From Candidatus Iainarchaeum sp. (GTDB lineage Archaea > Iainarchaeota > Iainarchaeia > Iainarchaeales > DTGL01): a stretch of DNA of 64,000 nt. The notes beneath the pieces are model-generated. The model had not been told where the DNA came from and did not search any database. It was given only the letters and a program-made list of their open reading frames with translations. Where the stretch lies: NCBI GenBank assembly GCA_026413945.1, contig JAOAJX010000006.1:13577-77576 (forward strand), given 5' to 3'. How positions within the stretch are numbered: the first letter of the stretch is position 1; every line of letters begins with the position of its first letter. This document shows, in pieces, positions 23 to 49,934 of the stretch. Both the position numbers and the translations under genes were made by a program.

Positions 23-97
23 TACTTTTTTCTTTTTAATTTTTTTCTTGCAACTGTGCGATAGCTTTATTTAACTTTGGCAGTTTTTAGTGATATT

Positions 98-5678: not shown

Positions 5679-6586
5679 TTCAAGCGCTAACCTTCTTTTT
5701 TCCAGAACACAAGATTAGGGGCTTTGGAACGCTCATCCACAATGAGTTAAACATAAGCATTGAAAAAGCAGATAGCATAGCAAAAATTTTTGCAGCAATA
5801 GCTTCAGTGATTTCGGCATTCTTTGTTTTTATTTCAGCAGGGGATACAGCAATAATAATTGCTACTTTCATTTTGTCCTTCTTGGGCTTTTACTTTTTTG
5901 CTATGGCTTTTATCGGCTTTTTCGCTGAAAAAAAATTGATTGAAAAGGAGAACAGCTGTGCTGAAGCACTAATGCATGCAAGCCTACTTCCTGAAGGCAC
6001 ACCAGTTGAGAAAATCATAAGCTATTTAGGCAATGGAAATTATGCCATTGCCAAAGAGTTTCAAAAGGCAGAGGATGAAATAAACAAAGGGGCAAGCCCA
6101 AACAAAGCACTCTCTAGAATATACAAAAGATGCAAAAAAGCAAATATAGCCCACATAGTACAGCTGCTAAAATTAGCAGATGTTTCTGGCAGCATAGGTC
6201 CAGAAACCTTTAGAGAATCAGCTACCGGAATGCTTGAAGAAAAAGCACTTATGCGTGAAAGGGCAGCAATGCTTACAATACAAAAAGTTACAGTGATCTT
6301 AAGCAGCATGCTTCTTGTGCCTTTTATACTTGGCATCCTTTGCAGCATAACAAGCAGCTTTGACTTAAGCTACCTTGAGATTCTTGGCATGGATAAGCCA
6401 AACCAAAGAAAGCTTGTAGCTGCTTCAGCAATGGCAAGCATCACGTATGTACTTGAATTAGCATTGATTTCAGCGGTTTTTTTGGGCATGCAAGATGGAA
6501 ACCTTAAAAAATCTGTTTTTTATCTTGCCTTTATAGCGCCTATTGCGCTCCTAATTTTTCTAAATGCCTCTGCCTTAATGGCATGA
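5675..6586 (+). CDS. Membrane platform protein, C-terminal half: a second T2SS-F/FlaJ/TadC-like domain flanked by TM helices.
   Basis: There is a 4-nt ATGA overlap with the previous ORF. It has N-terminal TM helices, then a soluble helical domain (AEALMHASLLPEGTPVEKIISYLGNGNYAIAKEFQKAEDEINKGASPNKALSRIY...), then 3 or more TM helices. Confidence 0.55.
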   Translation: MIQALTFFFPEHKIRGFGTLIHNELNISIEKADSIAKIFAAIASVISAFFVFISAGDTAIIIATFILSFLGFYFFAMAFIGFFAEKKLIEKENSCAEALMHASLLPEGTPVEKIISYLGNGNYAIAKEFQKAEDEINKGASPNKALSRIYKRCKKANIAHIVQLLKLADVSGSIGPETFRESATGMLEEKALMRERAAMLTIQKVTVILSSMLLVPFILGILCSITSSFDLSYLEILGMDKPNQRKLVAASAMASITYVLELALISAVFLGMQDGNLKKSVFYLAFIAPIALLIFLNASALMA

Positions 6587-23452: not shown

Positions 23453-24103
23453 ATGGCCAAAAAAAGCGCATCTAAGAAAAAAAGCCCCAATACTTTTATA
23501 GGACACTCTTGGCAAAGATTTAGCAAACAGAGCTTGAAGAAAGAGCTTTTGGCATCAGCAAAGTTTCTAATTTTTTTTCTGATTTCTTTTTCCATTATTT
23601 TCATTATTTTTTCTTTTCTGCCAATAGAAATTTTCGAATTTTTCACAGCAAAGATATCTGCAGCAATTCTCGAAGCCGTGGGCTATTCTACCAAAATAAT
23701 AACCGATGAACCCGTAAAGATTATTGTGAACTCTAAACACACGATTGAGATAAGCTACCTATGCACAGGAATTATTGAAACTATCGTGGTTGTAAGTGCG
23801 GTTGCAGCATCACTTGGAATAAGTCTCAAGAAAAGGCTCATTGGTGCTTTGGCAGGAGCTATTTTTGTGAATGTGCTTAATATATTAAGGATAATTGTAA
23901 CAATCGTTGCAATATCGAATCTGAAAGATATTGGCTTTGTGGATTTTATACATAATGTGCTTTTCAGGGCAACTCTTTTTGTGGGCATCGCTGTTTATTA
24001 TGCTGTCTGGTTTTTTGCCTCAACAAGAAGCTTTAATCCAATAGCACGTTTTAAGCTATGGCTTTTCCCTAAAATAAATTGTAGAAGAAACAAAAAACAA
24101 TAA
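23453..24103 (+). CDS. Small archaeosortase/exosortase-family-like polytopic membrane protein.
   Basis: It is 216 aa with about 5 TM helices. A candidate active-site Cys lies in a membrane helix (ISYLCTGIIETIVVV) and a conserved Arg in NVLNILRIIVTI, as in EpsH/ArtA-family transpeptidases. The call is family-level only, made by motif pattern and not by a search. Confidence 0.4.
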   Translation: MAKKSASKKKSPNTFIGHSWQRFSKQSLKKELLASAKFLIFFLISFSIIFIIFSFLPIEIFEFFTAKISAAILEAVGYSTKIITDEPVKIIVNSKHTIEISYLCTGIIETIVVVSAVAASLGISLKKRLIGALAGAIFVNVLNILRIIVTIVAISNLKDIGFVDFIHNVLFRATLFVGIAVYYAVWFFASTRSFNPIARFKLWLFPKINCRRNKKQ

Positions 24104-24173: not shown

Positions 24174-27100
24174 ATGTTAACAGATAAGCTCGGCTCTATT
24201 TACGCAGGCATAGAGGAGAAATGGTTTGAGCTGCTTAAAGCACTGCAGGAAAAAGGCATTCCTGCGTATAGCTATGCTGAGTTCTTAGAAAGCAGGGGCA
24301 TACCATCTTTGCCTTTTACAATAGCCATCATAATACTCCTTCTTGTAATTTTGTTTTCATTTTCTTTTGGGGGCGCATACACGGATGTGAGCTTAACTGT
24401 TACAATAAGGGATGATCAGGGGCAATCGCTAAGTGATGTCAAGCTCGAATTATATAATGACGATGGGCAAACACTTAAAAGTGAAACTGTGCAAAGTGGT
24501 TACAAGATTGAACTTAAAAGAGTTAAGATTGGCTCAACCATAACAGCATCTGCTTCAAAATCTGGTTACAGAAGTGCTTCGGCCGAAAAAGAGATAAATT
24601 CCAAAACCGCAACTATAAGCATAACACTTAAGAGAGAGGCAAGGCTTGTTTCTGCAAAAGTCCGGCTCATCGATGAGCTTACCTCAACCTTGATCAGAGA
24701 TGCGAGGTGCGAAGTTTCTTTTGATAAGAATACATTAGGCATTACTAGAGACTATGATGGCTTGTTTTTGGTAAATGTGCCACAGAAAACAGATGTGGTG
24801 CTAAAATGCACAGCTAATGGCTATGAAGACCTTCAGGAAGCAATGCGATTTGATGACGGTGAAATCAAAGTAGTAAAGTTGAAGCCAAAATCGGTTGATG
24901 TTAATTTAAGCACTCTACTGATAAGCGTATATGACGAGGAAACAAAGCAGCTTATAAAAGGGACAAGCATTCGCATTATAAACTCATCAACAGGCGTCAC
25001 GATAACAGACATTAATTCACAGAGCGGCGATTATACTGAAAAGATAAAGATAAACACCCAGGTTAGGATAATTGTAGAAAAAGCAGGTTATATGAGCTAT
25101 GTTGAAGATTTCACCATAAGAACCGCAGAGGTTGTTAAGAAAATATACTTAAAAAAAGGCGGTGCACAACTTATAGTAAATGTTACCTCAAAGGATGGCA
25201 TTGTGCAAGTAAATGCTGATGTTTCGCTTTTTGACTCAAACTTCCAACTCGTTTCTGCAAAAAAAACTGCCGTTTTAGGGAATGCTGCTTTTGATGGTAT
25301 TGATCCAAACAGGGATTATTATTTTAATGCATTCAAAGAAGGTTTTCTGCCGGCTTATGGAAGAATAAGTGCAGGGACCAAAAGCTTGGATATTAAACTT
25401 GAAAAGCCAACAGCACAAAATTCTGCATTGGTGAAAATAACAGTTAGGAACAGCTCAGGCAATATTACAAACAATGCAGCGCTGAAATATTATCGCATTA
25501 TAAATGCATTCAAGATTCCTCTTGGCATTCCTGTGAGAAAAACAGGGCTTACAGGCACAATTATAGAAACCCTTCCAGAGGGTACATTCCTTATAGCTGC
25601 CGAGACTGAAGTAGAGTATGGTGAAAAGGAAATAACAGTGATGGCAGGCATCGACCAACAGGTTGACATAAACATGTCAAGAAAGCCAAACTTTGTTGAG
25701 CTTCGATTAATTGATGGGAATGGAATGCCTTTGAAGGGAGAAGTTATTGTAAAGAGCAAAAGCGGAAAGACACTTTTTGCTGGAAATGTAAATGGGGGCG
25801 CGATTTTTGACAGTGAGATGAATGAAAGCTTTTTGGTGAGCGTGAAAACGCCTGATGGCAAAACATTTGAGCAGGAAGTAAGGGTTGGCGCAAACAATGT
25901 TGCTGAAGTCCGATTAGGGGCTGATAAAAAGGAACTAACAGATGGTGTCAAGCCCATAATAGAGTTTGCTGGAGTTTTTGATTCTGGAGGAAAAAGCATT
26001 GAAGGAGTTACGGCTGGGGAGTTTGCTTGGCTGCGTTTCAATGTCAGTTTTCCCCAGGGTGAGAAAACAGGCATACATATAAGGGTTGGGCCTGATAGCA
26101 TTGCGTCTGCCGATGCCCAAGAGATTGGAATTTTTGGTTTTGATGGAAATGCAAGCAGCTTTGTGTATGGCAAAAGCTATCAGGCACCTTTAGGTGAACA
26201 AAAGGATCTTGCAAGCAAAGGTGCAGCGAATGAGAGAAACAAATGGCTTGAGCTTTACTTTAACAAAGCACCATCGCAAACAGCAGTAAGCATAAAGGTA
26301 AAAACAGATAATATAAGCAGAGAAAAAGACTTTGAAGTACACTACAGAGCTTGGAGCGAAATAGGTACAAAAGTATTCAGAGACCCTGCAGACAGCGTGC
26401 TTGGAAATGAGAAAACAAGCAATGCAAAGCAAGCGCTTTATGCTGAAACAAAGATTGCAAGAGTAAAGGTATTTGAAGGAAAAGCAAGCTGCTCTGAAGA
26501 ACTCTGCATAGCTCTTGCTTTAATAGACTCAAACAATGTGAAGGTTAAAGAAGATGGTTTCTCTGCAGTTGAGGGTCAAACATATGCTCTAGAAATCTCT
26601 GTAAATTCTGGCAAAAAGATGAGTGCTGAAATTGTAGTAAGAAGCGAAAACTCAAATGTATTGCTTTCAGAGCTTACCGAAGATGTGTTGTCCTTTAGCC
26701 CGAAGGGAGAATTTTCAAAGACTGAGTTAAGGGGCTCCTTAAAACTCGAGGCAAATTCTTCAAAAATTGTAAGGGCTTACTTCAAAGGCAAGTCAGCCGG
26801 TACAGCAACGCTTGAGGCCCTTGTTAGGAGCGGAGACCTGAACGCAAATAAAAAGATAAGTTTCAATGTAACTGGAAGCAAAGAAATGCTTGCTGAAATT
26901 TATAAGAAAGGTGAAATAAAGGCAGGTGAAAAGCTAAGAGTTACCTTAAGGGATTCTGAAACAAAGGATCCCATCACAAATGCTTTTGTTTCAATAACAA
27001 GGGAAGGTGAGGTGCTTTTAAGCACTACTGGAAACAACACAAATGAAAACGGTGCAAATGGCATTTATGTCTTGGGTATAGATAAGCTAAGCCCGGGAAA

Positions 27101-30100
27101 GTATGTGCTGACAGCTAAGGCAGTTGGTTACAAAGATGCTTCTTTCCCAATAGTAATTTCAGCAGAAAAGTTACTTTCAATAGAACCACAATTAGAAATA
27201 ATGCTAAATAAGGGCGAGAAACAAAGAAGCGCAAAGCTGAAGCTTACAAATGGCTCATTTGATGTTATAGATAAGCTTGGTTATGAAGTAAAAGGCCTAA
27301 GCGGGGATACAAGCGATTTTAACATCATAGTTGCTCTGCCTCCAAAAATAGATGTCAGCAGAACCATTGATATTGAAGTGGTTGCCATATATAAAGGAGA
27401 TGTTGAGAAAAGAGCATATGCTGAATTTGAACTTATTGTTAGTGGATCTGAAAACCCAGTAGTAACTGCAAAAAGCAAAATAAAGGTTTCATACAATAAA
27501 GAGATTCCACCAGAGTGCATTGAGATTGACAAAAGTGAGGCTGAGATGCATTTCTCAGGAATTGCTGGCTCAGCTGAAGTCTTGCCTTTGACAATAACAT
27601 ACAAAAATGAAGCCTTTTGCAATAAGCCGCTTACATTCACGCCCAAGATGAAAAGCGATGATGATAAGCTTGTGCTAAGTGCACAGCCCTTCACCATAGT
27701 GCCTGGTGAAAATAAGACTATTGAGCTGAAAATAACAAACAATGCAGAAAGAGTGGGTGTGTTTGAGCAAAAAGTAGAAGCTACGGTATTCCTAGAAGCA
27801 CCCGAGGTTACGAAAAGCATTAGCTTGGGGATATTATTTACAGATCCTGCTTATGCGCTCCAGACGAATGATAACATACCGATATTCATGAGTTTTGATG
27901 TTGCAAAAGGCAGCTTTAGCGGAACAGCACCTTTGTTTGCGAAGAACTTTGGCAAAAAGGTTATTGAAAATATAAGGTGGAGCGTTAAGCCACCACAGCA
28001 GATTGAAATTTATATAACTTCTACAACCGGCAGTGGTAGTGGACAGCCACAGAACATTCCCAACCAGCAAATGCCTGGAATGCAAAATTTCATGCAAGCA
28101 CCAAACACGCCTTACATACAAGGAAACCCTTCAATGGCCGGAACCCAGTTTGCTGTAACCCTTGCTCCAGGCGAAGAAATGGAACCAAAAACAGTATTGG
28201 CAACAAGCACTGCAGCTAACCTCACAAGAGGGCCTCACAAGGGCGAGATAATACTGACTGGAACTGTCGATGGCAAGCAGTTCCAAAAAGTAGTTTCGAT
28301 ATGGGTATTTGTTTCAACAGCACAATGCATAAAAGTTGCCCCAGCTGATGAGCTTTACTTCTCAAGTGAGGATTCATCTCAGGGTGTAATAGCAAAGAAG
28401 ATAACAATAAAGAACGAATGCGGAGAAGTAGCCAGGAACTTTATCCTAAAGCCCCAAAACCTTGGAAACAACACTTTGAGCATAACACTTCTTGGCAATA
28501 AGGACTTTTTGTATCCTGATGAAAGTGCACAAGCACAAATAGTTCTTACAAAGCGCGGTGATTACTTCAATGCTCAAAGGCCTGATAACATAATTGTTAG
28601 TGTTTTCCTAGTAAATAGCCAGAAATTTGTTGATTCTAATCCCTTGCCTGTGCTTATTGAAGTAGGAAAGAAGCCAGATGTATCTGCTGGTCCAGTTTAT
28701 AAAGAAGTGCAAATACCTGTTTGCGGCGAAACATCTTCAGTTAAAAAATCAGTCCAGTTCCCTGTAATGAGTGCAGATATTGGCTGTGATTCTGGCTACT
28801 GCGACGCAGTGCAGCTTTCTGGCTATATTGTGGAGCGCATAAAAGGTGTGATGCAAAAAGTTGACAAAGTGCTGCAGCAAAACGATTTGGTGAGCAGCTA
28901 TGCTATGTGCAGCCAGTTGGAAGGCTTCTGCAGCTTTTCTGCAATGGGCATAGTGCCTGAAGTTTACACAGTTTATATGAGAAATGATTCTTTTGGAAAA
29001 GAAGTTCTGCAAAGAAGGGTTGAAAGCTCAAAGGAGTTTGCAACATTTGTAACAGAATATTTCCAAGGCGATGTTAGTGAGATAGTAAAGAGCGCAACTG
29101 GTTTCACAACAAGCAAAATATTCATGACAAAGCCTCTTGTTGGCTGCGGTCGCTATAAGATATCAATACAAGGCGCTGTGCAGAATATTCAAGGGCGTTT
29201 GTCAAGAGAAAACTACTTTATACTTGTAAAAATTGTTGAAGATAGGAAAGTTACGCCTGAGTGCATGATGCGTATCCAAAACATTGCAAATTTCTTACCA
29301 TTAGATCGTGGGCTTGCTGCTGACAAACATTATAATACCTGGCTCGGAACAACCGAGGGTTTGGATGCCACACGTAAAGCAGCTGAGCTTTTTGCACAAA
29401 AGCTTTTTGATGATAAGAGCAGAGTTAATGTTGCATATCACACGAATAAGCTTAAAGTTATTCTCGGTGAAATACCTGAAAGCGGCATTGCAAAGATTTC
29501 AATGAACCAGGTATCGCAACAGCAGGCACAGCCTGCAACCCTTGGCGTTACAATAAATAAGCTTTATGTTACGCTTGACGAAAAGATGCAGGATGAAATG
29601 ATTGCAAAAGCATCTGAAGCGCTTAAGCAACTCATGGAGGGCTCATTTACTGTTGAGGGCTGCATAACAAAGGATGACTCTGCACTTGTAATATCAAAGC
29701 TCGAGCACACCGGCGACCTTGACATTGAGAAAGCATCAGACACAATTGAACTTTACTATAGTATGCCTATGTGCGTTGATATGAACGTAGTTAGCACAGT
29801 TCTTGAGCCGGTGGTGCTAAAAACAAGCTTTGCTTCGATGAAAGACAATGAAAAAGCAGGTATTCAGGATGTTTGGATTGAAGTCGATGGCAAGAGAATT
29901 TCAGAGTACTCTGAAAGGCAGGAGGGGACGCCAATCACACTTGAAAAAGAGGGTGGAGAAGAAAGCAAAAAGTTTAAGAAAAGCTTTAAACTATGCGTAA
30001 AGGCAAATGATGCTTACTTTGAGCTTGCTGCAGGCAAGAAGATTGGTGTGAAAGCCAGAAGCGTTATATTTGCAACTAAGGAGATGCGCTCATGGAAGGA

Positions 30101-32252
30101 AGTAACACTTGAGCTTTGTGGGATACACCCATATAAGCTAATTCAAAAGATGTCTAATGAAAAAGTAGAGCCTGGCAAAAGCAAGGTTTTTTATGCAACG
30201 GTTGGCTGGAAAGGCGAGCCAAATGAGATTGACTTTGCTGCTACAACTAGGGGTTTGACTGCAAGCGATCGCTTGAAAAGAGCACAAGAGCTCATGGAAG
30301 ATGTTGGCAAAGGCGGCCGCATTGATGATTCGCCAATAGGCCAGAAAATATTGGGCCTGAAAAGGCAGGGTTATGGGCTTTATTTCGGTGCTTGCTTAGC
30401 CGTATCTTTCATCTGCCATGTAGTTACAGGTTTAGATCCTCTTGGCATTAGGGCTCTAATAAATGCCATGATCGACTGTTTGCCTGCAACAATAGGGGGG
30501 CTTTTTGGCACTACAAAAGCGGGGCAGGGGTTCCAAAAAGCTTTAAACGATGCTTGGGAAAAGGTTAAATCAAATCTTAGATGGTTCTATGCGCCATGGA
30601 GCAGCGGAAAGGCAACTCCAAATACAGAAGCGGGGCTTTATGGGCAAGCAATGGATGAATTCTGGGATAATGCAGTGCCTGCTGCAATATTGGGCTTTGA
30701 GGCAGATTGGCTTGCAACAGAATTGCGCTCTTATGTTTACTCAAGAGGTTGGGCAAACAAGACAATAGGTAGCACCGAAGCCATAGATACAATTGCTGAA
30801 CAGATGGCAAAAGATGCAACACAAAAGTTTACCTCAAAGTATCTAAAAGGTGTTACGACGGCAGCATCGGATGATTTTATTAATGCTTTTACCCCTCAGT
30901 TACAGAGTTCATTACAAGAAAGCATTTCAAGCACATTAAGAAAAAACAGCAGCATGACATTTGGAAAACTTATTCAAGATAAAGCGGTTATGCAAAGCAT
31001 GTGGCAAAAGGCAACGTCGGATGAGAAAATAAAAACGCTTGTTTACAGCAAAGGGTTTGGCCGCGGAGCAGAAATAGAAAAACTTATTAGCAGCCACGCT
31101 GAAGATTTCCTTAGAAAAAGCGTTGATCCTAAAGATATAAAAGAAATTTTTGGCTCAAGCTCTGTCAGCCAAGAAGATCTCGCAAAGGCAATTGTAGATC
31201 AGATAGATAGCGCTGGATACAAAACATATGGAGTTAGGTTAACAAAGGATGTGCGAAAAGGTCTAATTAGTTCAGCAAAAAAGGGTATTAGCAAGGGTCA
31301 TATTTATGCAGATAGTATAGAGGGACAAGTGAATAATGCCTTAAAACACATACATATGGATAGAAGTAATGAGCTCATGCAAATTTATGGGCAAAATGTA
31401 CTTGACAATCTTGATGATGTAATGGCCCAACCAAAGCAGCCCGGGGCTTTTAAGAGAATGATTGAGGCAATGAAAACAAGGAGCTTTTGGGCACGCTTGG
31501 CAAAAAGCATTGCCTGTGGCGCTGTTTCAAATGCTGCAGGATATGCTGCTTATTCAAGCCATGTAAAAGGCGGGATTGAAGAACTTATGGACAAGGGGTA
31601 TATTCCAGAGGCGGGAGTCAGCGTTGGAGATCCTTCAAAGCTTATCAGCGGCTACACAGGCCCTAAACTTATGAAAAATAGGACTTACAAGATAACAATA
31701 AGCAAGGATGATTACGGAAACATAAGCTACAATCTTGAGCTTGTGGATACAGAAAAAGAAATAGAAGAAATGCGCGCTGCCATAAGCAAAAACCCTTCTG
31801 CACTGTGGCGCGAAGATTGTAAAGAGTACCGTGAAAAAGGCCTTTCTGAAATGGTCGGTTGCTTGGCACCAAAAACAGGTGATTACATAAAGCCAGAAGA
31901 GGTTGTCGCTTACTACAAAAACAGCGGCTTTATAAGGGAAGCTTCAATACAATTCAATGTGCACGAAGCGCTGATAATGGCTGCGCTTACAACAAGATTT
32001 GAAAACTTCGAGCCGTGCCCTGTAAACCAGAAATGGTACGAAGGCGAAGACAGTGAAAGAAAGCTCACCATAAAATGCGTAGCAATGCACATAAGTGAGA
32101 AGCTTGCAGCAAATCAGGATAATATAAGGTCTGCATTTGAAGTCCTTAGCAAAGAAAGGTCTGCTGATAAAGCAAGAGCCTACGCGATGGATGTCGAAGC
32201 TAAATACAGGATGTGGAAAACATACGACACATGCAAAGGAGAAGGGGGCTAA
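24174..32252 (+). CDS. Giant (2692 aa) type-II membrane surface protein, paralogue A of four. It has an N-terminal cytoplasmic segment and a single TM, then tandem prealbumin/Ig-like domains, a conserved central module and a helical C-terminal region.
   Basis: The N-terminus is ...EEKWFELLKALQEKGIP...LPFTIAIIILLLVILFSFSF. About 10 or more ~85-aa beta-rich repeats follow (for example SLTVTIRDDQGQSLSDVKLELYNDDGQ). Motifs shared with giants B-D are NKWLELYF, ALYAETK...ASCSEELC and CDSGYCDAVQ. A Q/N-rich linker lies at about 28020-28140 and a hydrophobic segment at 30364-30515. Confidence 0.85.
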   Translation: MLTDKLGSIYAGIEEKWFELLKALQEKGIPAYSYAEFLESRGIPSLPFTIAIIILLLVILFSFSFGGAYTDVSLTVTIRDDQGQSLSDVKLELYNDDGQTLKSETVQSGYKIELKRVKIGSTITASASKSGYRSASAEKEINSKTATISITLKREARLVSAKVRLIDELTSTLIRDARCEVSFDKNTLGITRDYDGLFLVNVPQKTDVVLKCTANGYEDLQEAMRFDDGEIKVVKLKPKSVDVNLSTLLISVYDEETKQLIKGTSIRIINSSTGVTITDINSQSGDYTEKIKINTQVRIIVEKAGYMSYVEDFTIRTAEVVKKIYLKKGGAQLIVNVTSKDGIVQVNADVSLFDSNFQLVSAKKTAVLGNAAFDGIDPNRDYYFNAFKEGFLPAYGRISAGTKSLDIKLEKPTAQNSALVKITVRNSSGNITNNAALKYYRIINAFKIPLGIPVRKTGLTGTIIETLPEGTFLIAAETEVEYGEKEITVMAGIDQQVDINMSRKPNFVELRLIDGNGMPLKGEVIVKSKSGKTLFAGNVNGGAIFDSEMNESFLVSVKTPDGKTFEQEVRVGANNVAEVRLGADKKELTDGVKPIIEFAGVFDSGGKSIEGVTAGEFAWLRFNVSFPQGEKTGIHIRVGPDSIASADAQEIGIFGFDGNASSFVYGKSYQAPLGEQKDLASKGAANERNKWLELYFNKAPSQTAVSIKVKTDNISREKDFEVHYRAWSEIGTKVFRDPADSVLGNEKTSNAKQALYAETKIARVKVFEGKASCSEELCIALALIDSNNVKVKEDGFSAVEGQTYALEISVNSGKKMSAEIVVRSENSNVLLSELTEDVLSFSPKGEFSKTELRGSLKLEANSSKIVRAYFKGKSAGTATLEALVRSGDLNANKKISFNVTGSKEMLAEIYKKGEIKAGEKLRVTLRDSETKDPITNAFVSITREGEVLLSTTGNNTNENGANGIYVLGIDKLSPGKYVLTAKAVGYKDASFPIVISAEKLLSIEPQLEIMLNKGEKQRSAKLKLTNGSFDVIDKLGYEVKGLSGDTSDFNIIVALPPKIDVSRTIDIEVVAIYKGDVEKRAYAEFELIVSGSENPVVTAKSKIKVSYNKEIPPECIEIDKSEAEMHFSGIAGSAEVLPLTITYKNEAFCNKPLTFTPKMKSDDDKLVLSAQPFTIVPGENKTIELKITNNAERVGVFEQKVEATVFLEAPEVTKSISLGILFTDPAYALQTNDNIPIFMSFDVAKGSFSGTAPLFAKNFGKKVIENIRWSVKPPQQIEIYITSTTGSGSGQPQNIPNQQMPGMQNFMQAPNTPYIQGNPSMAGTQFAVTLAPGEEMEPKTVLATSTAANLTRGPHKGEIILTGTVDGKQFQKVVSIWVFVSTAQCIKVAPADELYFSSEDSSQGVIAKKITIKNECGEVARNFILKPQNLGNNTLSITLLGNKDFLYPDESAQAQIVLTKRGDYFNAQRPDNIIVSVFLVNSQKFVDSNPLPVLIEVGKKPDVSAGPVYKEVQIPVCGETSSVKKSVQFPVMSADIGCDSGYCDAVQLSGYIVERIKGVMQKVDKVLQQNDLVSSYAMCSQLEGFCSFSAMGIVPEVYTVYMRNDSFGKEVLQRRVESSKEFATFVTEYFQGDVSEIVKSATGFTTSKIFMTKPLVGCGRYKISIQGAVQNIQGRLSRENYFILVKIVEDRKVTPECMMRIQNIANFLPLDRGLAADKHYNTWLGTTEGLDATRKAAELFAQKLFDDKSRVNVAYHTNKLKVILGEIPESGIAKISMNQVSQQQAQPATLGVTINKLYVTLDEKMQDEMIAKASEALKQLMEGSFTVEGCITKDDSALVISKLEHTGDLDIEKASDTIELYYSMPMCVDMNVVSTVLEPVVLKTSFASMKDNEKAGIQDVWIEVDGKRISEYSERQEGTPITLEKEGGEESKKFKKSFKLCVKANDAYFELAAGKKIGVKARSVIFATKEMRSWKEVTLELCGIHPYKLIQKMSNEKVEPGKSKVFYATVGWKGEPNEIDFAATTRGLTASDRLKRAQELMEDVGKGGRIDDSPIGQKILGLKRQGYGLYFGACLAVSFICHVVTGLDPLGIRALINAMIDCLPATIGGLFGTTKAGQGFQKALNDAWEKVKSNLRWFYAPWSSGKATPNTEAGLYGQAMDEFWDNAVPAAILGFEADWLATELRSYVYSRGWANKTIGSTEAIDTIAEQMAKDATQKFTSKYLKGVTTAASDDFINAFTPQLQSSLQESISSTLRKNSSMTFGKLIQDKAVMQSMWQKATSDEKIKTLVYSKGFGRGAEIEKLISSHAEDFLRKSVDPKDIKEIFGSSSVSQEDLAKAIVDQIDSAGYKTYGVRLTKDVRKGLISSAKKGISKGHIYADSIEGQVNNALKHIHMDRSNELMQIYGQNVLDNLDDVMAQPKQPGAFKRMIEAMKTRSFWARLAKSIACGAVSNAAGYAAYSSHVKGGIEELMDKGYIPEAGVSVGDPSKLISGYTGPKLMKNRTYKITISKDDYGNISYNLELVDTEKEIEEMRAAISKNPSALWREDCKEYREKGLSEMVGCLAPKTGDYIKPEEVVAYYKNSGFIREASIQFNVHEALIMAALTTRFENFEPCPVNQKWYEGEDSERKLTIKCVAMHISEKLAANQDNIRSAFEVLSKERSADKARAYAMDVEAKYRMWKTYDTCKGEGG

Positions 32253-41453: not shown

Positions 41454-44400
41454 ATGGGAATAATGAGTTCTTTGCGTGAATTTTATTACCATTTAGAGGA
41501 TCGCTACTATGAAGTAATAGACAAAATAAGCACTAAAATACCCATAAACAAATTAACAGATGCTATTGACAAAGTTTTTCCTTCATTTATTCTTTTTATA
41601 ATACTTTTATTTGTACTTTTAGCAGCTTTAGTGCTTTTTTTAATTCCATCCGTGGTAATTCCAAAAGATGTCGCATTAAATGTTTTTGTACAGTATCAAG
41701 ACAGGTTTGGTGCAAAAAGACCTCTTGAGGGCGCAAAAATTGAGATAATCGTTGGTGAAAAGGTTCATAGGATAACAACATCAGAAAATGGAAAAATTCA
41801 GCCAATAATCCTCAAACCAAAAAGTGAAGTAATACTGCGCGTTTCAAAGGATGGTTTTAAGCCAAACCCGGCTGAGAAAAGCATAACGATGGAGGATGAA
41901 AATGCACAGGTAAGCTTTTTGCTTACAGAGATAATAAAGACACAGAGCATTAGCTTCAAGATTATAGATGAAAATACAAAAAGCCCAATAGTGAAGCGCG
42001 TATCATTATCATTTGAGTGCTCAAACAAAAAAGCAAATCCGCCAAAAGCTGCTGAAAAATACACTGATTATAGCGGCAGTATCCAAATAGATGATGTTGA
42101 GATTGACTGCTTACCATTGCTAGTAACGGTAAATGCGCAGGAGTACGAAACAGCAGAAAATGTCAGTGTTAGAGATGGTACCACAATAGCTTTGAGGAAA
42201 GTTGTAGAGCTTAAGCCGGTAGAACAAAAGGGCAGGCTAATTGTAAATGTCACCTTTAGAGGTGAGTTGCCAGAAGAGAATATTATTGTTGATCTTGAAA
42301 AGGATACTGGTGCAGCCCCAATTTTTATGGAATCTGGAGTTACTAGCAGTGGCCAAGTTGTTTTTGAAGTCTTGCCTGGTAAATACCGAGTAAGAACAAA
42401 GGCAACTGCAAATTATAGTGTTGCGGAATCACAATTTATAAATGTTGGTGCAAACGAGAATAGGTCAATCAGCTTAGAAATTCAGAAGATAATAATTGGC
42501 AGTATAAAGATACAAGTTTTTGATAAAGACAACTCAAAGCCATTAGCAAATGCCAGAGTAACATTAATTAAAGATAATACTCAGTTTGCATGCGCAGATA
42601 CAAATGCTGAAGGCAGAGCTGATTTCCATCTATCCAAAGACGAAAATTTCTTGCTTGTCGTTGATCATCCTGATTACTGTGTTTATCGCCTTAGAGATGT
42701 GAGAAAATCGGATAGCATTCTTAGAATAGGCCTTGTAAAATACACTCAAGATTGTGGCGGCTCCATATCAGTAAAGGTTATCGACTTTGAAAAGCGTGCC
42801 ATTTCAGGTGCAAAGGTTGCTGCCTTTGATGAAAACGGTAGCAGCCTTGGGCTAAAAGAGTTGATAACAGACATAAACGGCATCGCGGTATTCAAAGGGT
42901 TTTATCTCGGAAGATACAAATTCTTCGCATATAAGGGCTTTGGAAGCAGCTGGAGCGATATTATTGAGTTCTCGCCAAGATTGGGCACTGAACATGAAGC
43001 AGTGATCGTATTAAGCATCCCTAAGGCAACTCTAAAACTGAAAGTAACTAATGATGGTGGTGAAGGCCTTCCATTTAGTGATGTTATTGTAAAAGATGCA
43101 TACACTGATAAAGTAATAAAGGGGCCACTAAAAATTGAAAATATTGGTGGAGATATTGACATAAACATAGATGCCGGCTTTTCTTTCTATTTGTATATAA
43201 ACAACCCAGATTACGCACCATACATAAGCGAAAGAATAGTGCTTAAGCCAGAAGAGCAGAGGCAAATGCATGTAAAGCTTGAGCCAAAGAGAATAAGTGG
43301 CGAAATAGCCATTGAATTCTTAGGCCTTTTTAAAGATGGGCAAAATGCTGTTGTGCTTGCAGCTGGAAAAGAATACATGGCAAAGTTTAAGGTTTCTGTC
43401 CCAGAATCTGCACAATATGATAAATTCGGGGTGCATCTACGAGTTGGAAAATACAATATAATGGAAAAAGACTTCTTGTTCATAAAAGAAATTTATGCTG
43501 GCGGAAACCCAAAAATTATTCGGGGCATTTCATATAGCCCAGAGCAAGGCATGGGTCATGATTTCAGTCTATTGAGCACTGAAAGTGCAAAATGGGTTAA
43601 TCTTGAATGGACAAGATTGAGTGGTGGCACCATTTATGTTTACGCAAAAGTTAAGGTAAAAGAATCCGCATCCTCTGAAGAGCTAAAAGTAATGTGGCGT
43701 GCTTGGGGCCTTAGAAAAGGTTTAATGGTAAGAGATCCTGAAGATATGGCTTTAGGCAATGCTATGAGCGATGCAGAGCTTTATGCGAAAACGTATGAGC
43801 GTATTTATAATGTAGGAGAAGAAAAGCTTTGCACAGATAAGTGGTGCACTGTTTTCAAAGCACTTGATATTGAGGAAAATGTTGCAACATATATTGATGG
43901 AAGCTATACTGCAAAAGTTGGAAAACCTTACAAGCTATACTTTAGTATAGCAAACAGTAGCAAATTTGAAACTGACACTTTTACAAATGTCAAGCTGAAG
44001 ATATTTAATACTGAAAAAAACATAACCTTTGGAAACTACATTGTTTATGGAGAAACGGTTGTTAAAGGCAGTGCTAATGCAAATGAAACACCATACATTG
44101 AAGTGGGAAATATAAAGCCAAATAATGAAATTCATGGTGAGATAGAATTTTCGCCAAAATCAGGCAAATTTGGAAGCATAAATTTACGCTTGCACGATCC
44201 AACAAAGCATGCGCACATATTCGAAGAAACCATTGCGGTTAGCATAATTGCGGCAAGAAACTTCACGATTGACTTTAAGGTTGGTGAAAGCTTTCAGTCA
44301 GAGGCGCCTCTGCTGCCAAGCGGTGTTGAGAATACAATTATTGCTAGAATAAGGGACAAACAATCTGGGCTAGAAGTGTCGGATGCTATAGTTAAGGTTA

Positions 44401-47400
44401 AGGACTCTACTGGCAACACTATAATACAAACCTTTACAGGCTCTTTAGGCCTTGCAGAAATAAAGCTTCCTTCGCTCATGCCAGATGAAAAATTAGTGCT
44501 TACTGCAGAAAAGCCAGATTATGAAGAAGCAAGGAAAGAAATACGCACTGATGGAAATGTTATTAATCTTGAGCCAGCAGAGATAGGCCTACAGCTTAAT
44601 GTTTTCACAAAAAGGGAAGACAGCGTAGTTGTGAGAATCTTAAACAAAACAGCAATGACGCTCAAGCTTAGGGCAATTAAGCTTTCGGGAGAATTCTATG
44701 GAATAATTGACGAGCGGAAAGTTAGGGATTGGCTAGTTGGTGAATATGTAGGCAAGGAGATAGGGCCCAAAGGTAAGTTAGATATCGCACTAAAGGTTTC
44801 GCTAAGCGATTATGGAAAAACTATTAATGAAGTCAAGAACCTTGAGGGTCTGGTAACAGCAAGCGTCTCCACTTCCTCTGCCTATGGTCACGAGTGGCAT
44901 GCTGATAGCAAAGTCAAAATCTCTGTTGGAATAGGCGGTGAAGTTGATGATCCTTCATGCCTTATTGCCAGCATAAAAGAATGGAAAGCAAAAACAAAAA
45001 GCAACGAGGTAAGCACTGATTTTTCTGTTAAAAACAACTGCACTCTCGAAGGAAAGCCTATAGCACTCAAAAACTTAAGTGCAAAAATTGAGCTTAAAGG
45101 CAACCGGCTTGGAAGCTATTATGTGAAAATTGGCGACGTTGGCATAGAACTAAGCAACGCATACCCTAAAATATTGAAAGGAACTTTAAACCCAGAAGAA
45201 ACTTTACCTGCCCTATTATCATTTGCTCCAGACGGTGGCATTGTCGGAACTGCAAAGGCAACTATTATAATAACTGCAGAACATTACACTAATAAAGGAA
45301 AGCAGACTTTGAGCACAAGCATAGAGACTGAAATAGAGATGATAAGCTTAGAGAATTGTATAAGATATGATAAAAGTCTCATAAGGATAGTTGATCATAA
45401 CAGTGCAACTTTGAAAATAGAAACTAAAGGTTGCAAGGTGCCAATTGACTTTATGCTTGATACTAAAATTGCGGTTTCTGAAAAAGAGTTTAACATGAAG
45501 GCTGATGATAATAAAGAATTAATAGTAATGCCTTCTCAGGAAGACATACCTGGACAGTATCCAATATATGTGATGGTAAAAAGTGCTAACGACAGCGAAT
45601 ATTCTTTCAACAAGCTTATAAGGGTAATTATAGAGCCCAAAGGCTGCTTAAAATTGAACCGCTATGAGTTTGACATATACGACGATGCAAATAACCCATA
45701 TGATGGCTTTGATACTGCTCTTTTAATGAATGAATGCTATAAAAGGACTGAAAAGATAAGTATAAGCTATGATGAGCGTGACTGGTGGGAAGCAATAAAA
45801 ACCGGCGCAGTATGGGGCCTTGTAGGTTTTGTCTATGGTGGCGTAAGGTCACTTGCAGCAGGCAAAACTTTCTTTGGCACAGAAAGGCCTTCTAATGTTT
45901 GCAGCAAAGCAGGCTATAAATACTGTGGAACTAAAAATCTATGCAAAGATGAACGTGTAGTAGTAGTTAATAATGTAACATGCTGTGCATCCGAGTGCAT
46001 AACAGAAGAAACAGGTCTTCATAAAGACATTTGCAGCAAAAAAGGGTATAATTACTGTGGCGCAGGCAATTGTGATTTAACACAAGGTAAAGAGACGGTA
46101 GTAGATGGGGTTGTATGCTGCACAGGTAAATGTAAAACAGGAACTATTGAGAAACCTGAAAATATTTGCAAGTCGGCAGGCAAATATTTCTGCAAGACTG
46201 ACGAAATATGCCCAGATGCAGCATACGTTGTTGTTGGTGATGTAACATGCTGTGGAAAACCATGTGCAAAAGGTCAGATTGCTAAGCCACCGATAACTCA
46301 GCCAACAACAGCAACTGTAAAACCACCTTCAGGACAAAAAACAGACGAAGAACTATGTAAGGAATATTATCCAAATTCGCGCAAAATTACTTCTCAGGAA
46401 GAGTGTCACCCAAATTGTACATTTAGCAGACAAACTGCGGAAAGGTTAGTGAAATGTTGCAAGAATGACTGCACCGGCACAGAAAAGCCACCAACTGATG
46501 GTACAACAGAGGGGGGAAAGCCACCCTCTGAAACAGGCGCACCTATTGAAGGACCAACCATACCAGATTGCTACAACACTGAGCTTGAATGTGCTGCAAA
46601 GGCATGGAAAAAGACAACTTTGCTTACTGGTGGTTGTGACTGCTATGCAGCAATAAATTGCATATATGACGAGTTTGGAAAGTGTTATAGGTTTGGGTAT
46701 TGTAATAACAGCAAATGCACAACTCAAGGCACGACAGGCCCAAGTGAGCCCGTGGAAGGAGAATGTAAAATAGAGGGTTATTTCTGTAAAGGAACGGTAA
46801 TGTATTGGAGAGATAGTTGCGGAAATGAAGGCATACAGATGGACTGTGCAGAATCTGGTGCCATATGTGAAGCTGGAAATTGTGTATTACAGGAAGGTTG
46901 CAAACTTGAAGGTTACTTCTGTCAAGGAACTGTTTTACATTGGAAAGATAGCTGTGGTAATACGGGTGTTGAGAGAGACTGTGCAGATGCTGGAGGAATA
47001 TGTCAGAATGGGAATTGTGTTGCTGCTGAAAGTGGTTGCCAGCGCATTGGTTACTTCTGTCAAGGAACTGTTTTACATTGGAAAGATAGCTGTGGTAATA
47101 CGGGTGTTGAGAGAGACTGTGCAGATGCTGGAGGAATATGTCAGAATGGTAATTGTGTTGCTGCTGAAGGCAGCAGCAGTGGTACCACTCAACCGCCTTC
47201 AGGCGATGTTTGTATTGGTTGCCATGAAACATTGTCCAAATGCCAAAAAGCTAATGGTGCAGGCATCGCTAGGATATGTGATTGTGAGCTTGCTGTTACA
47301 TGTGAATATGTGCCATCTTGTTCTGTAGCAACGCCGTGCTACAGATTCAAGAGCTGTAACAACAGTTTTTGCTCTTTAGGTAGTAGTGGAAGAAAAATGA

Positions 47401-49934
47401 ATGAGGAAGGTATGATAAGAAAGGTTGTCGCTGCCAATTCTTCACCAGGCTTTGCAATTGGCTTATTTAGCTTGGAAAGCATCACAAACATCTTTAAAGG
47501 AAATATAGACATTTTGGGAAGTTTGCTGAAGATTGATGATCCATGGACTGGGGCATTGATTGGCTTTATAGCTGGCACACTATACACTTACTGGCAGCAG
47601 AGCCAAAATGTTGGCGTGCTCCAGATTCCTGTTGCTGTAAGAGACCTAAACATATTGGAATTAAAGCTTCTAATACAAAAAGGTCTTGAAGAAGAGATTG
47701 AAAACAAGATCATCGTGGAAAAGGGCAAAGCCAAGATTGAAAACCCACCAGAAAAGCCATTGGGCATTGAGAAGATTGAAATTGTGTTCAAAAACAATGG
47801 CATAAAGCAAGAAGATATATACAAGCCAATATACCGCATACTAAAAGTGAATGGAAGCAAAATGGAATATCAGACTGACTACAATACAAAGAAAAAGAAA
47901 GATGCTGAGGCAATGAAGAAAATGGAGCCATCAGTGATTGGCAGCGAAGAGTATATACAGAAATTCCATCTGCAGTTCAATTCGTACAAGGCAAAACCAA
48001 CCAAACCGGAAGTGAGACCTGAAGTAAGCTGCAAAGTTGGTGGTCTCATTGGCTCAACAGGGAAAGAAGCATTGCCAAAGATTAAGCTTTCATGGAACTG
48101 GAATGATATTGCAATTAATGAATGTGATGAAAGCGGAATCGGCAATTACTGCGATGCAACACAATTTAGCATAGAATTACTTAAGAAGTTAAAAAGAATT
48201 GACGAACTGCTCAGAGGCCAGAAATTAAAGTGCCCTTCGGCTGAAGGCATACTTAGTGAAAAAACACAGGAATTGGATAATCTTAAGTTGGACGTCGCAG
48301 TTACAAAAATAAGAGTTGAAAAAAGTGGATTTAATGCAACAGTTATTGGAACCATAGCAAGCAATAACAAGCAAGAGATGACAGTAAATGCATTTTTGTC
48401 TGTTTCCAAAGGTGGAAATACAATAAACTGCCCAGAAGGTGAAAAAGCAGTAAAGGTTATTGACAAAACCGAAGTAACATGCGTCTTTAACAACCTAGAA
48501 GAAGGCCTTTATGATGCTATGGTCAGGATAAGCCCTCAGCTAACAACATGTAGTGGGTCATGCAAAAACGAAAATTTAGGCAATGACACTATAAGCACAA
48601 AGTTCGCTGTTGGCACAACAGCAGGGATATTTGAAAAATGTGAGCCATACAGTACTGAACGCCTCCCAGATTTTATAGCAGCAAACCCAAACAATGCAAG
48701 TCTTAAAGAAGCATTATCACTTACAAACTTCAACGCATACCTTATGCAAGATGGTTACACCTTGGACTTCAGAAAGGATTTCCATGAGTTCTCAGAAACT
48801 AAAGATTTCTTCAGCACCCCTTCTTGGTACAAAGGAGACATCGGCATAGGCAAGTATTTCTCAAGTGCAGCGCTCTTTGAATTTAAATCTCCATTCCTGA
48901 GACCTGAGTCAGGCTACCTACCAGCAGGCAAGTACAATGTTAGGATAAAAATTGATTATAATAATGGATCTTGGTGCTTGTTTGAAGGCACAATTCCAAA
49001 TGCAAGAATAGAAGTAATTTTTGAGCGTTTAGATACGCCCGATCCAGATTCTGTGTTTTATTATATGCCATTTAACGGTCTTGTTGGTGTTGATAGCCAA
49101 AACGGGCGGCAGGGCTATGGAATAAACTTCAGGCAAAAATCAGAGGAAACCATAAAAATAAATGAAGATGTGAAACAGCCAATAAGAACTACCACAATTG
49201 CAAACTCAATACCAATACCAAATGGCTGGGTTGAAGCCCGCGTTGTTAAGGATTTCAAAACATTGCATGGTGATACGCCTGGTGTTGTGCTCGAAATTGA
49301 AAAAAGCACAGCTGGCTTGAATATGGTATATAGCCCAAGTGTAGCCACACCGCTTTTGCTAAAAGTTAGTGGTGGTGAGAGAAAGAACGCTTATGCATTT
49401 TACCAGCTAACAATAAACAACAGACCACAGGAAGCCTCAAGTAGCTTGTTCTCATGGAGTGGCCTTGTAAAAGGCTGTAAGGACTTCACTGATGCTGAAG
49501 TTACAGAAGCATTTAACTACAGGCGTGATATACGCGGAGGTGTTGGCAAAACTCAATGTGCAGGCAGCTTTTCAACACATCAGTATGGCGTAGAGTGGTG
49601 CAACATTAAGAGGCAAGGAGATGTATTCCTGAAAACAATTCTATTCACACCACAAGAGAGTGTAGCTTTGCTCGAAATTGTAAGCTCTTCCGACAAAGCA
49701 GTGTTCATAAGCCCAAAAGGCACTGGCAATCGCATAGAAACCGGTGGCATCGAAGGTGCAACAATTACATCTGTAGAGAAAATACTTAAGCTTGTGGAAG
49801 AGAAGAAAGTGTGTGTTGCCGGCCTTGGAAGCAATAGCAGGGCAACATTCTTCTGGAATCAGCAACAGCTTATAGATGCTGCATTTAAAAACACGATAGA
49901 AAGCATACCTTCACAATGCATAAAAAGTAGCTGA
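41454..49934 (+). CDS. Giant (2826 aa) type-II membrane surface protein, paralogue C. It contains two families of Cys-rich tandem modules.
   Basis: It has an N-terminal TM FILFIILLFVLLAALVLFLI. Shared modules are AKWVNLEWT, ELYAKTYERIYNVGEEKLCTDKWC and PKIKLSWNWNDIAINECDESGIGNYCDATQFS. Cys-rich repeats lie at about 45890-47400. Confidence 0.85.
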   Translation: MGIMSSLREFYYHLEDRYYEVIDKISTKIPINKLTDAIDKVFPSFILFIILLFVLLAALVLFLIPSVVIPKDVALNVFVQYQDRFGAKRPLEGAKIEIIVGEKVHRITTSENGKIQPIILKPKSEVILRVSKDGFKPNPAEKSITMEDENAQVSFLLTEIIKTQSISFKIIDENTKSPIVKRVSLSFECSNKKANPPKAAEKYTDYSGSIQIDDVEIDCLPLLVTVNAQEYETAENVSVRDGTTIALRKVVELKPVEQKGRLIVNVTFRGELPEENIIVDLEKDTGAAPIFMESGVTSSGQVVFEVLPGKYRVRTKATANYSVAESQFINVGANENRSISLEIQKIIIGSIKIQVFDKDNSKPLANARVTLIKDNTQFACADTNAEGRADFHLSKDENFLLVVDHPDYCVYRLRDVRKSDSILRIGLVKYTQDCGGSISVKVIDFEKRAISGAKVAAFDENGSSLGLKELITDINGIAVFKGFYLGRYKFFAYKGFGSSWSDIIEFSPRLGTEHEAVIVLSIPKATLKLKVTNDGGEGLPFSDVIVKDAYTDKVIKGPLKIENIGGDIDINIDAGFSFYLYINNPDYAPYISERIVLKPEEQRQMHVKLEPKRISGEIAIEFLGLFKDGQNAVVLAAGKEYMAKFKVSVPESAQYDKFGVHLRVGKYNIMEKDFLFIKEIYAGGNPKIIRGISYSPEQGMGHDFSLLSTESAKWVNLEWTRLSGGTIYVYAKVKVKESASSEELKVMWRAWGLRKGLMVRDPEDMALGNAMSDAELYAKTYERIYNVGEEKLCTDKWCTVFKALDIEENVATYIDGSYTAKVGKPYKLYFSIANSSKFETDTFTNVKLKIFNTEKNITFGNYIVYGETVVKGSANANETPYIEVGNIKPNNEIHGEIEFSPKSGKFGSINLRLHDPTKHAHIFEETIAVSIIAARNFTIDFKVGESFQSEAPLLPSGVENTIIARIRDKQSGLEVSDAIVKVKDSTGNTIIQTFTGSLGLAEIKLPSLMPDEKLVLTAEKPDYEEARKEIRTDGNVINLEPAEIGLQLNVFTKREDSVVVRILNKTAMTLKLRAIKLSGEFYGIIDERKVRDWLVGEYVGKEIGPKGKLDIALKVSLSDYGKTINEVKNLEGLVTASVSTSSAYGHEWHADSKVKISVGIGGEVDDPSCLIASIKEWKAKTKSNEVSTDFSVKNNCTLEGKPIALKNLSAKIELKGNRLGSYYVKIGDVGIELSNAYPKILKGTLNPEETLPALLSFAPDGGIVGTAKATIIITAEHYTNKGKQTLSTSIETEIEMISLENCIRYDKSLIRIVDHNSATLKIETKGCKVPIDFMLDTKIAVSEKEFNMKADDNKELIVMPSQEDIPGQYPIYVMVKSANDSEYSFNKLIRVIIEPKGCLKLNRYEFDIYDDANNPYDGFDTALLMNECYKRTEKISISYDERDWWEAIKTGAVWGLVGFVYGGVRSLAAGKTFFGTERPSNVCSKAGYKYCGTKNLCKDERVVVVNNVTCCASECITEETGLHKDICSKKGYNYCGAGNCDLTQGKETVVDGVVCCTGKCKTGTIEKPENICKSAGKYFCKTDEICPDAAYVVVGDVTCCGKPCAKGQIAKPPITQPTTATVKPPSGQKTDEELCKEYYPNSRKITSQEECHPNCTFSRQTAERLVKCCKNDCTGTEKPPTDGTTEGGKPPSETGAPIEGPTIPDCYNTELECAAKAWKKTTLLTGGCDCYAAINCIYDEFGKCYRFGYCNNSKCTTQGTTGPSEPVEGECKIEGYFCKGTVMYWRDSCGNEGIQMDCAESGAICEAGNCVLQEGCKLEGYFCQGTVLHWKDSCGNTGVERDCADAGGICQNGNCVAAESGCQRIGYFCQGTVLHWKDSCGNTGVERDCADAGGICQNGNCVAAEGSSSGTTQPPSGDVCIGCHETLSKCQKANGAGIARICDCELAVTCEYVPSCSVATPCYRFKSCNNSFCSLGSSGRKMNEEGMIRKVVAANSSPGFAIGLFSLESITNIFKGNIDILGSLLKIDDPWTGALIGFIAGTLYTYWQQSQNVGVLQIPVAVRDLNILELKLLIQKGLEEEIENKIIVEKGKAKIENPPEKPLGIEKIEIVFKNNGIKQEDIYKPIYRILKVNGSKMEYQTDYNTKKKKDAEAMKKMEPSVIGSEEYIQKFHLQFNSYKAKPTKPEVRPEVSCKVGGLIGSTGKEALPKIKLSWNWNDIAINECDESGIGNYCDATQFSIELLKKLKRIDELLRGQKLKCPSAEGILSEKTQELDNLKLDVAVTKIRVEKSGFNATVIGTIASNNKQEMTVNAFLSVSKGGNTINCPEGEKAVKVIDKTEVTCVFNNLEEGLYDAMVRISPQLTTCSGSCKNENLGNDTISTKFAVGTTAGIFEKCEPYSTERLPDFIAANPNNASLKEALSLTNFNAYLMQDGYTLDFRKDFHEFSETKDFFSTPSWYKGDIGIGKYFSSAALFEFKSPFLRPESGYLPAGKYNVRIKIDYNNGSWCLFEGTIPNARIEVIFERLDTPDPDSVFYYMPFNGLVGVDSQNGRQGYGINFRQKSEETIKINEDVKQPIRTTTIANSIPIPNGWVEARVVKDFKTLHGDTPGVVLEIEKSTAGLNMVYSPSVATPLLLKVSGGERKNAYAFYQLTINNRPQEASSSLFSWSGLVKGCKDFTDAEVTEAFNYRRDIRGGVGKTQCAGSFSTHQYGVEWCNIKRQGDVFLKTILFTPQESVALLEIVSSSDKAVFISPKGTGNRIETGGIEGATITSVEKILKLVEEKKVCVAGLGSNSRATFFWNQQQLIDAAFKNTIESIPSQCIKSS
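45890..46270 (+). repeat. Three or more divergent ~45-aa Cys-rich modules (C.K.GY.YCG...C....VVV..VTCC...C) inside giant C.
   Basis: The modules are CSKAGYKYCGTKNLCKDERVVVVNNVTCCASEC, CSKKGYNYCGAGNCDLTQGKETVVDGVVCCTGKC and CKSAGKYFCKTDEICPDAAYVVVGDVTCCGKPC. Confidence 0.6.
46758..47172 (+). repeat. In-frame tandem repeat of period 138 nt (46 aa, 8 Cys per unit). The last two units are near-identical at DNA level (46896-47033 vs 47034-47171). An upstream unit at 46758-46895 is about 70% identical.
   Basis: Direct comparison of the two units shows an identical ~110-nt core (ggttacttctgtcaaggaactgttttacattggaaagatagctgtggtaatacgggtgttgagagagactgtgcagatgctggaggaatatgtcagaatgg) differing by 1 SNP plus the unit ends. 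The same duplication appears in the antisense and +2-frame track ORFs (46624-47232, 46825-47328). Confidence 0.9.

Follow-up and report, generated by a model that had tools for sequence, protein, structure and literature searches.

Near-identical cysteine-rich repeat units in a giant archaeal protein and the case for the recent gain of one module

How do two neighbouring units of a protein-coding repeat come to be almost identical in nucleotides? The question is raised by a 64-kb stretch of Candidatus Iainarchaeum DNA (the window throughout this text), whose source is a tiny hot-spring-type archaeon of the Diapherotrites/Iainarchaeota (DPANN), and specifically by a giant gene within it, here giant C, in which three cysteine-rich units (the c units) stand head to tail. 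A reading made earlier from the letters by themselves (the sequence-only reading) had pointed to a very recent duplication at this place, an observation that is real and, with the corrections given below, partly confirmed. We lean towards the view that the last step in the growth of this array was a tandem duplication of its second unit, after the lineage had split from a relative with two.

The repeat units and their counterparts in related genomes

The elements on which the argument turns are the following, with the limits of each unit set from its first Cys codon.

41454 to 49934, + strand: giant gene C, 2,826 amino acids (aa), third of four tandem paralogues
45900 to 47372, + strand: Cys-rich cassette, aa 1483-1973, ~490 residues, with 60 of the 88 Cys of giant C
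46764 to 46898, + strand: c unit 1 (u1), 135 nucleotides (nt), 45 codons, 6 Cys; the older copy
46899 to 47036, + strand: c unit 2 (u2), 138 nt, 46 aa, 6 Cys
47037 to 47174, + strand: c unit 3 (u3), 138 nt, 46 aa, 6 Cys; a 9-nt insertion, 47169-47177, follows
46911 to 47030, + strand: near-identical tract, copy A, 120 nt, 119 of them the same as in 47049-47168
47049 to 47168, + strand: near-identical tract, copy B

Tandem Repeats Finder places a period-138 array at 46911-47168 (1.9 copies, 99% matches, score 509), a base-by-base comparison shows that 46896-47033 and 47034-47171 differ at 10 of 138 nt, and all three c units are in frame with the open reading frame (ORF) at 41454-49934; the proposed tandem, in-frame duplication of period 138 is thereby borne out. 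The longest exact run shared by u2 and u3 is 101 nt (46911-47011), followed by one mismatch and then by 18 identical nt, the mismatch being a synonymous one (G at 47012, T at 47150; GGG/GGT). The single mismatch reported earlier thus stands, and the core that contains it is 120 nt long rather than ~110. Likewise, the two copies do diverge at the unit boundaries, as had been said, but that divergence is confined to two places: a 9-nt patch just after the first Cys codon (AAACTTGAA, K-L-E, at 46902-46910; CAGCGCATT, Q-R-I, at 47040-47048), in which 8 of the 9 nt differ, and a 9-nt GGCAGCAGC insertion in the linker at 47169-47177, which precedes an AGTGGT common to both copies. The upstream u1 is 64-68% identical to the other two in nucleotides; its existence as a third, older unit had been recognised, although it had been given 138 nt at 46758-46895, coordinates that put it one codon out of register with u2 and u3. 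The eight cysteines attributed to each unit are in fact six, and the 40-residue peptide quoted for them has five. Since the three c units form the one direct-repeat family of at least 30 nt in the whole window (68%, 100% and 94% identity), chance is not an issue for this repeat. Two overlapping ORFs, 46624-47232 (-) and 46825-47328 (+), were rejected as shadows of the giant gene.

Orthologues of giant C from a full-length protein search provide a copy-number comparison across three related genomes.

Giant C of the window: three c units
L002, Candidatus Iainarchaeum metagenome-assembled genome (MAG) SRBZ-1_202007_bins_46, 83% aa identity over aa 1009-2826: two c units
P0002 (L001), Iainarchaeum MAG SRBZ-2_201901_bins_199, 68% aa identity: one c unit
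P0003, 60% aa identity: no c unit; the module b2, described below, is its only b module

The SRBZ-prefixed MAGs derive from a geothermal-spring survey at Tengchong (PMC11094006). The genome and metagenome collections searched yielded no closer relative. Because these relatives carry 0, 1 or 2 copies, the c repeat is a genuine one whose number of units varies, and the in-frame unit count differs between related genomes in the manner of a surface-protein repeat. The expectation of variable copy number is therefore upheld at the level of comparison between species (3, 2, 1 and 0 c units), with a whole cassette of ~160 to ~950 residues among the orthologues; the more distant of these have different, longer Cys-rich arrays. 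The longest cassette (~950 aa), that of P0009, has Gly/Thr-rich low-complexity linkers (aa ~2100-2250) and a 'C.DSDNG...' type module absent from the window protein. Six-Cys 'c-like' stretches spotted by eye in P0007-P0011 were missed by a narrow hidden Markov model (HMM) made from the four closest units and are not claimed here.

The correspondence between units can be followed in some detail. At the nucleotide level u1 is the orthologue of the first c unit of L002 (82% identity), and both u2 and u3 match the second (76% and 74%). That second unit has a head (C-K-H-D) orthologous to that of u2 (C-K-L-E) and a tail orthologous to that of u3 with its downstream linker. L002 has counterparts of both the u3 tail and the u1/u2 junction, and the junction between the u2 tail and the u3 head is the sole new one. 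Among codons for the same residue, 1 of 40 differs between u2 and u3, as against 18 of 35 between u2 and the second L002 unit. Synonymous sites between the window and L002 are saturated (proportion of synonymous differences, pS, 0.6-0.9), and therefore the identity of u2 and u3 is far younger than the split between the two genomes, in keeping with the original proposal of a very recent duplication or ongoing conversion.

How the third unit came about

These comparisons can be arranged into a history in which the lineage would have built its c array stepwise, from no unit to one, two and then three. In the newest step the second unit would have been duplicated in tandem, through unequal or illegitimate recombination or replication slippage (a mechanism we infer), once the lineage had parted from its closest sampled relative, where two units remain. 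The new copy would later have gained the clustered 9-nt change just past its first Cys codon, one synonymous change and, in the linker, an (AGC)-type indel of 9 nt. Because each c unit is predicted to fold on its own, as beads on a string do, an extra unit would lengthen the cassette by one folded bead and leave the rest of the protein undisturbed.

Several points weigh against this history. A fresh 138-nt duplication is expected to be identical throughout, yet 8 of 9 nt differ at 47040-47048 directly beside a stretch in which 119 of 120 are the same; point mutation does not yield a patch clustered in this way, and no donor for the patch and its flanks that is better than chance occurs within the window. 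Furthermore, the second c unit of L002, with its u2-type head and u3-type tail, is the same as would be left by an unequal-crossover deletion from a three-unit ancestor. The comparison covers three related genomes, the count of three units is that of the assembly, and any function of the module would be read from its context.

The strongest competing account is gene conversion, according to which u2 and u3 would be paralogues of long standing, a short conversion tract would lately have homogenised their 120-nt cores but left the 9-nt patch and the linker unconverted, and the two-unit L002 would have lost a unit through unequal crossover between units 2 and 3. The abrupt switch between near-identity and the patch at 46902-46910 / 47040-47048 looks like a tract edge bordered by old divergence, the composite unit of L002 is what such a deletion would produce, and near-identical neighbouring units recur in two other proteins of the family described below (P0030 and P0037). 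On the other hand, this account needs three events (an earlier gain, the loss in L002 and the conversion), where the duplication needs one gain plus small changes, and copy number climbs with relatedness (0, 1, 2, 3), which fits stepwise gain. Moreover, across 20 adjacent unit pairs of other arrays, taken from the full-module metagenome loci listed, nucleotide identity is 61% at the median and at most 73%, so homogenisation is not a rule of the family, and the near-identical u2/u3 pair appears to be an unusual one within it. We give new duplication somewhat better than an even chance and regard gene conversion as a serious but clearly less probable contender.

A different kind of explanation would see a contingency or antigenic-variation locus, where host or immune-like pressure for rapid change would preserve the repeat as a hotspot of mutation. 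Cassette length does vary greatly among the orthologues, the protein is probably surface-exposed, and DPANN archaea are often episymbionts, the Iainarchaeota being listed among the phyla with such lifestyles (PMC11094006). However, the orthologous c units give no sign of diversifying selection on residues, whether in the ratio of nonsynonymous to synonymous divergence (dN/dS) or in the proportion of nonsynonymous differences (pN) relative to the flanks. The comparison of u1 with the first c unit of L002 gives a dN of 0.09 and a dS of 1.04 (dN/dS about 0.09), pointing to purifying selection, and pN is 0.083-0.086 in the c units and 0.046-0.065 in the flanking halves (only 1.3-1.9 times as high in the units). 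What varies is the number of modules. In addition, the near-identity is limited to two copies, the window has no other repeat, and the variation is seen between species-level relatives. We know of no adaptive immunity against surface proteins in archaeal hosts. A contingency locus is thus improbable, and the host or immune-type selection that the sequence-only reading had invoked finds no support.

It is also worth considering that the third unit might have been made by a short-read assembler, either as a false duplicate built from strain variants or as the remnant of a longer array that was collapsed. The source is a MAG; a second assembly of the exact window protein was not found by a metagenome scan or by exact contig look-ups, which also missed P0001, the database entry for giant C itself; and the 101-nt exact run is comparable to typical short-read lengths and assembler k-mers, which are of that order. 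Set against this, the u2/u3 junction, GCTGCTGAA-AGTGGT-TGCCAGCGCATT-GGTTAC (around 47022-47054), is unique sequence with core on both sides, for which reads spanning it would be needed and which a two-unit genome could not otherwise give; the copies differ internally at 47012 / 47150, so that an assembler can separate them; and independently assembled relatives have one and two units at the same site, which makes the arrays biologically real. Because the junction is unique and has core sequence on either side, a falsely added copy is unlikely; this argues against a spurious unit and not against an under-count, and we consider an assembly artefact very improbable overall.

Fold, family and gene setting

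Given u2 alone with a 53-sequence alignment, AlphaFold2 returns five short strands and one helical turn at a predicted local distance difference test (pLDDT) score of 94.3. A model of all three units has a pLDDT of 87.4, a predicted template modelling (pTM) score of 0.43 and the same secondary structure three times over; because that structure repeats at such a pLDDT yet with so low a pTM, the model indicates independently folded beads whose mutual orientation is undefined. The c unit is most likely a ~45-residue, six-cysteine, all-beta extracellular module. A Foldseek comparison of the module with the PDB gave nothing significant (best E 0.47), and a search of PDB sequences with the c-module profile gave spurious zinc-knuckle matches only (E at least 0.013).

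The module is not confined to this protein. None of the three module types of the cassette (a, b and c) has a match in Pfam or NCBIfam, and when aa 1471-1990 were searched exhaustively with HMMER against 1.84 billion representatives, 14 proteins matched, of which 12 unrelated ones match the c array only. These 12 carry 1-11 c-type units each, with arrays of 3-11 among them and a core [VL][YH]W-x-DSCG, in the company of Lcl_C, PEGA, PKD, Big_2 and PG_binding_1 domains; one is from a Candidatus Woesearchaeota MAG (MBS3120766.1, P0031) and the others are unnamed or 'hypothetical'. With an iterative HMM the window units score 38.8-43.6 bits, alongside 70 units in the 12 proteins, and in the alignment of the repeats four Cys columns are invariant and two more are nearly so. 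In metagenomes, a scan with a degenerate DNA pattern found at least 120 loci, with full modules in 15 among the 120 matches listed. Most of the other listed loci have a partial 'EVYWFDSCGNRENIY' motif and were not counted as members; in seven of them (L004, L011, L032, L073, L075, L085 and L115) this half-motif lies at about aa 230-360 of ORFs of 1,000-1,500 aa, and such ORFs appear to be a different large family that shares the hairpin. Searches of the literature on DPANN giant or cysteine-rich surface proteins yielded no account of the c module, which is best described as belonging to an uncurated disulfide-rich repeat family.

Giant C is 100% identical to P0001, the NCBI entry 'MAG: hypothetical protein N3F05_04470 [Candidatus Diapherotrites archaeon]'. 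A hydropathy profile shows a single strongly hydrophobic stretch, N-terminal and within aa ~34-80, and C-terminal to it the protein carries CarboxypepD_reg / SpaA / bMG3-type Ig-like domains (Pfam). The protein is probably anchored in the membrane and extracellular; its cassette would then lie outside the cell, with cysteines presumably joined in disulfide bonds, and may have some attachment or spacing role. The modules of the cassette run in the order a1-a2-a3-a4, b1, c1-c2-c3, b2, as judged by eye from the translation.

45900 to 46472, + strand: a modules, three in tandem (45900-46265) and a divergent fourth (46356-46472)
46569 to 46718, + strand: b1 module, upstream of the c array, aa 1706-1755, 8 Cys, '...CDCYAAINCIYDEFGKCYRFGYCNNSKC'
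47211 to 47372, + strand: b2 module, downstream of the c array, aa 1920-1973, 10 Cys

The a module, ~45 aa with the pattern 'C..GY.YC...C......CC...C', is kept in the orthologues P0002-P0004 and is the part of the cassette most widely conserved among orthologues; one further protein, P0029, matches the a-module part only. The b1 module has counterparts in L002 (90% identity) and in L001 (82%). The b type, found on both sides of the c array, is a second uncurated module ('...CDC..A..C.Y.....CY.F..C.N..C', 8-10 Cys), and three more copies occur, along with c units, in P0034 (aa ~640-800), an unrelated metagenome protein of 1,200 aa. The whole cassette is bracketed by the motifs GKTFFG (45861-45878, aa 1470-1475) and DDPWTG (47535-47552, aa 2028-2033). 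Conserved, glycine-rich and confined to cassette-bearing orthologues, GKTFxG and DDPWTG lie ~450-940 aa apart where both are matched, and this varying distance between conserved motifs suggests a tolerated site for loop-out insertion.

A more ambitious proposal is that the c module is structurally distinct and founds a family of disulfide-rich beta-fold repeats not described before and without a counterpart in Pfam, NCBIfam or the PDB, which ultra-small archaea and other microbes would use as an expandable cassette. We regard this proposal, taken as a whole, as doubtful; if it is true, the gain and loss of beads between GKTFxG and DDPWTG in this giant-protein family would adjust how far attachment to a host or substrate reaches, or how specific it is.

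The cassette is found in giant C and not in its paralogues A, B and D; paralogue D, for example, aligns to giant C at aa 12-1413 and aa 2108-2804 only. The four giant paralogues, which share CarboxypepD_reg / Big_1 / SpaA / MG-type Ig-like domains and are 25-26% identical to one another where alignable, follow two pairs of T2SSE ATPase and T2SSF platform genes of a type-II/IV-secretion-like, type-IV-pilus-like kind.

3374 to 5113 and 5675 to 6586: first ATPase/platform pair
17659 to 19938 and 19951 to 22308: second ATPase/platform pair
24174 to 32252, + strand: giant gene, 2,692 aa
34060 to 41379, + strand: giant gene, 2,439 aa
41454 to 49934, + strand: giant gene C, 2,826 aa
49958 to 56848, + strand: giant gene, 2,296 aa

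The first ATPase (3374-5113) has an N-terminal 4Fe-4S ferredoxin-type domain, an unusual fusion, and a PAC2 gene, too, precedes the giant genes. Immediately before the first of them comes a 216-aa ORF (23453-24103, +) with an exosortase (EpsH) family match; despite this exosortase-like neighbour, giant C has no C-terminal hydrophobic sorting tail in its hydropathy profile. Elsewhere in the window, the gene at 77-1447 (+) has 6 Cys in 50 aa at aa ~351-400 ('CNDNNPCTIDEF...CGTGKECKAGKC'), with a weak, sub-threshold Dicty_CTDC match.

Comparison with known systems

Like EGF-like domains and knottins, the c module is small, probably extracellular and furnished with six Cys. The EGF- or knottin-like module that the sequence-only reading had proposed nevertheless finds no support: no EGF or knottin model matches the window units, and the predicted five strands and one helix extend over 46 residues. 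The modelled c unit does not conform to the EGF fold (two small beta hairpins; 1-3, 2-4, 5-6 disulfides), and the EGF families give no match to the window c units at E values up to 10; among the family stretches the sole EGF match is EGF_TEN, which two of the 23 relatives give at E 0.3. A knottin, or inhibitor cystine knot, has three disulfides in ~30 residues; none was returned in either fold search, and the predicted module has 45-46 residues. The EB module (PF01683) does not match the window units; among three-unit stretches from members of the family, 11 of 23 match it below threshold, at a best E of 8.8e-5. Other small disulfide-stabilised beta domains can be named among the closest systems, specifically those of the Fusarium effectors Avr1/SIX4 and Avr3/SIX1, a domain of archaeal Fusexin1 and the CBM14 (peritrophin-A) chitin-binding domains, to which the resemblance is weak. 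The interpretation offered at the outset is in sum partly supported, being right on recency and variable copy number, wrong on the number of cysteines and the class of fold, and unsupported on immune-type selection.

The nearest comparison is with the 'VYWxDSCG' six-Cys repeat of the 12 proteins (P0030-P0041). The window units have its spacing (C-x6/7-C-x10-C-x8/9-C-x5/6-C-x4-C) and its aromatic-W-x-DSCG core, and they too form head-to-tail tandem arrays with a period of ~44-47 aa among the domains of surface or secreted proteins; two of the members, P0030 and P0037, also have near-identical neighbouring units (at the protein level). The window units differ from these members in being 20-38% identical to them and in lying within a giant archaeal protein, with b modules on both sides. 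The family is a six-cysteine repeat outside the curated domain libraries, with a confident AlphaFold model, and it merits a Pfam entry and a solved structure.

Tandem domain repeats of variable copy number are well known from bacterial adhesins such as the Rib/alpha-C proteins, the G5-E repeats of SasG/Aap and Bap-type proteins. As in these, giant C has in-frame, domain-sized, near-identical tandem DNA repeats in what is probably a surface protein, the number of units varies between relatives, and the units are bead-like, so that copy number sets length. The adhesins usually have many near-identical copies that vary at the level of strains, whereas here there is one near-identical pair, the variation is seen between species-level relatives, and the module is disulfide-rich and archaeal. 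For genome work, the array marks a site where short-read MAG assemblies may mis-count units. On the reading that we favour, the event is of an ordinary kind, in which a surface protein has one of its domain-sized units duplicated in tandem, a well-known process that calls for no new mechanism, and the interest lies in its setting, a giant DPANN protein with an undescribed module family. It would then offer a clean, dated case of a giant archaeal surface protein that grows by whole folded modules, one each time, with the newest step in the growth of the c array still readable in the nucleotides.

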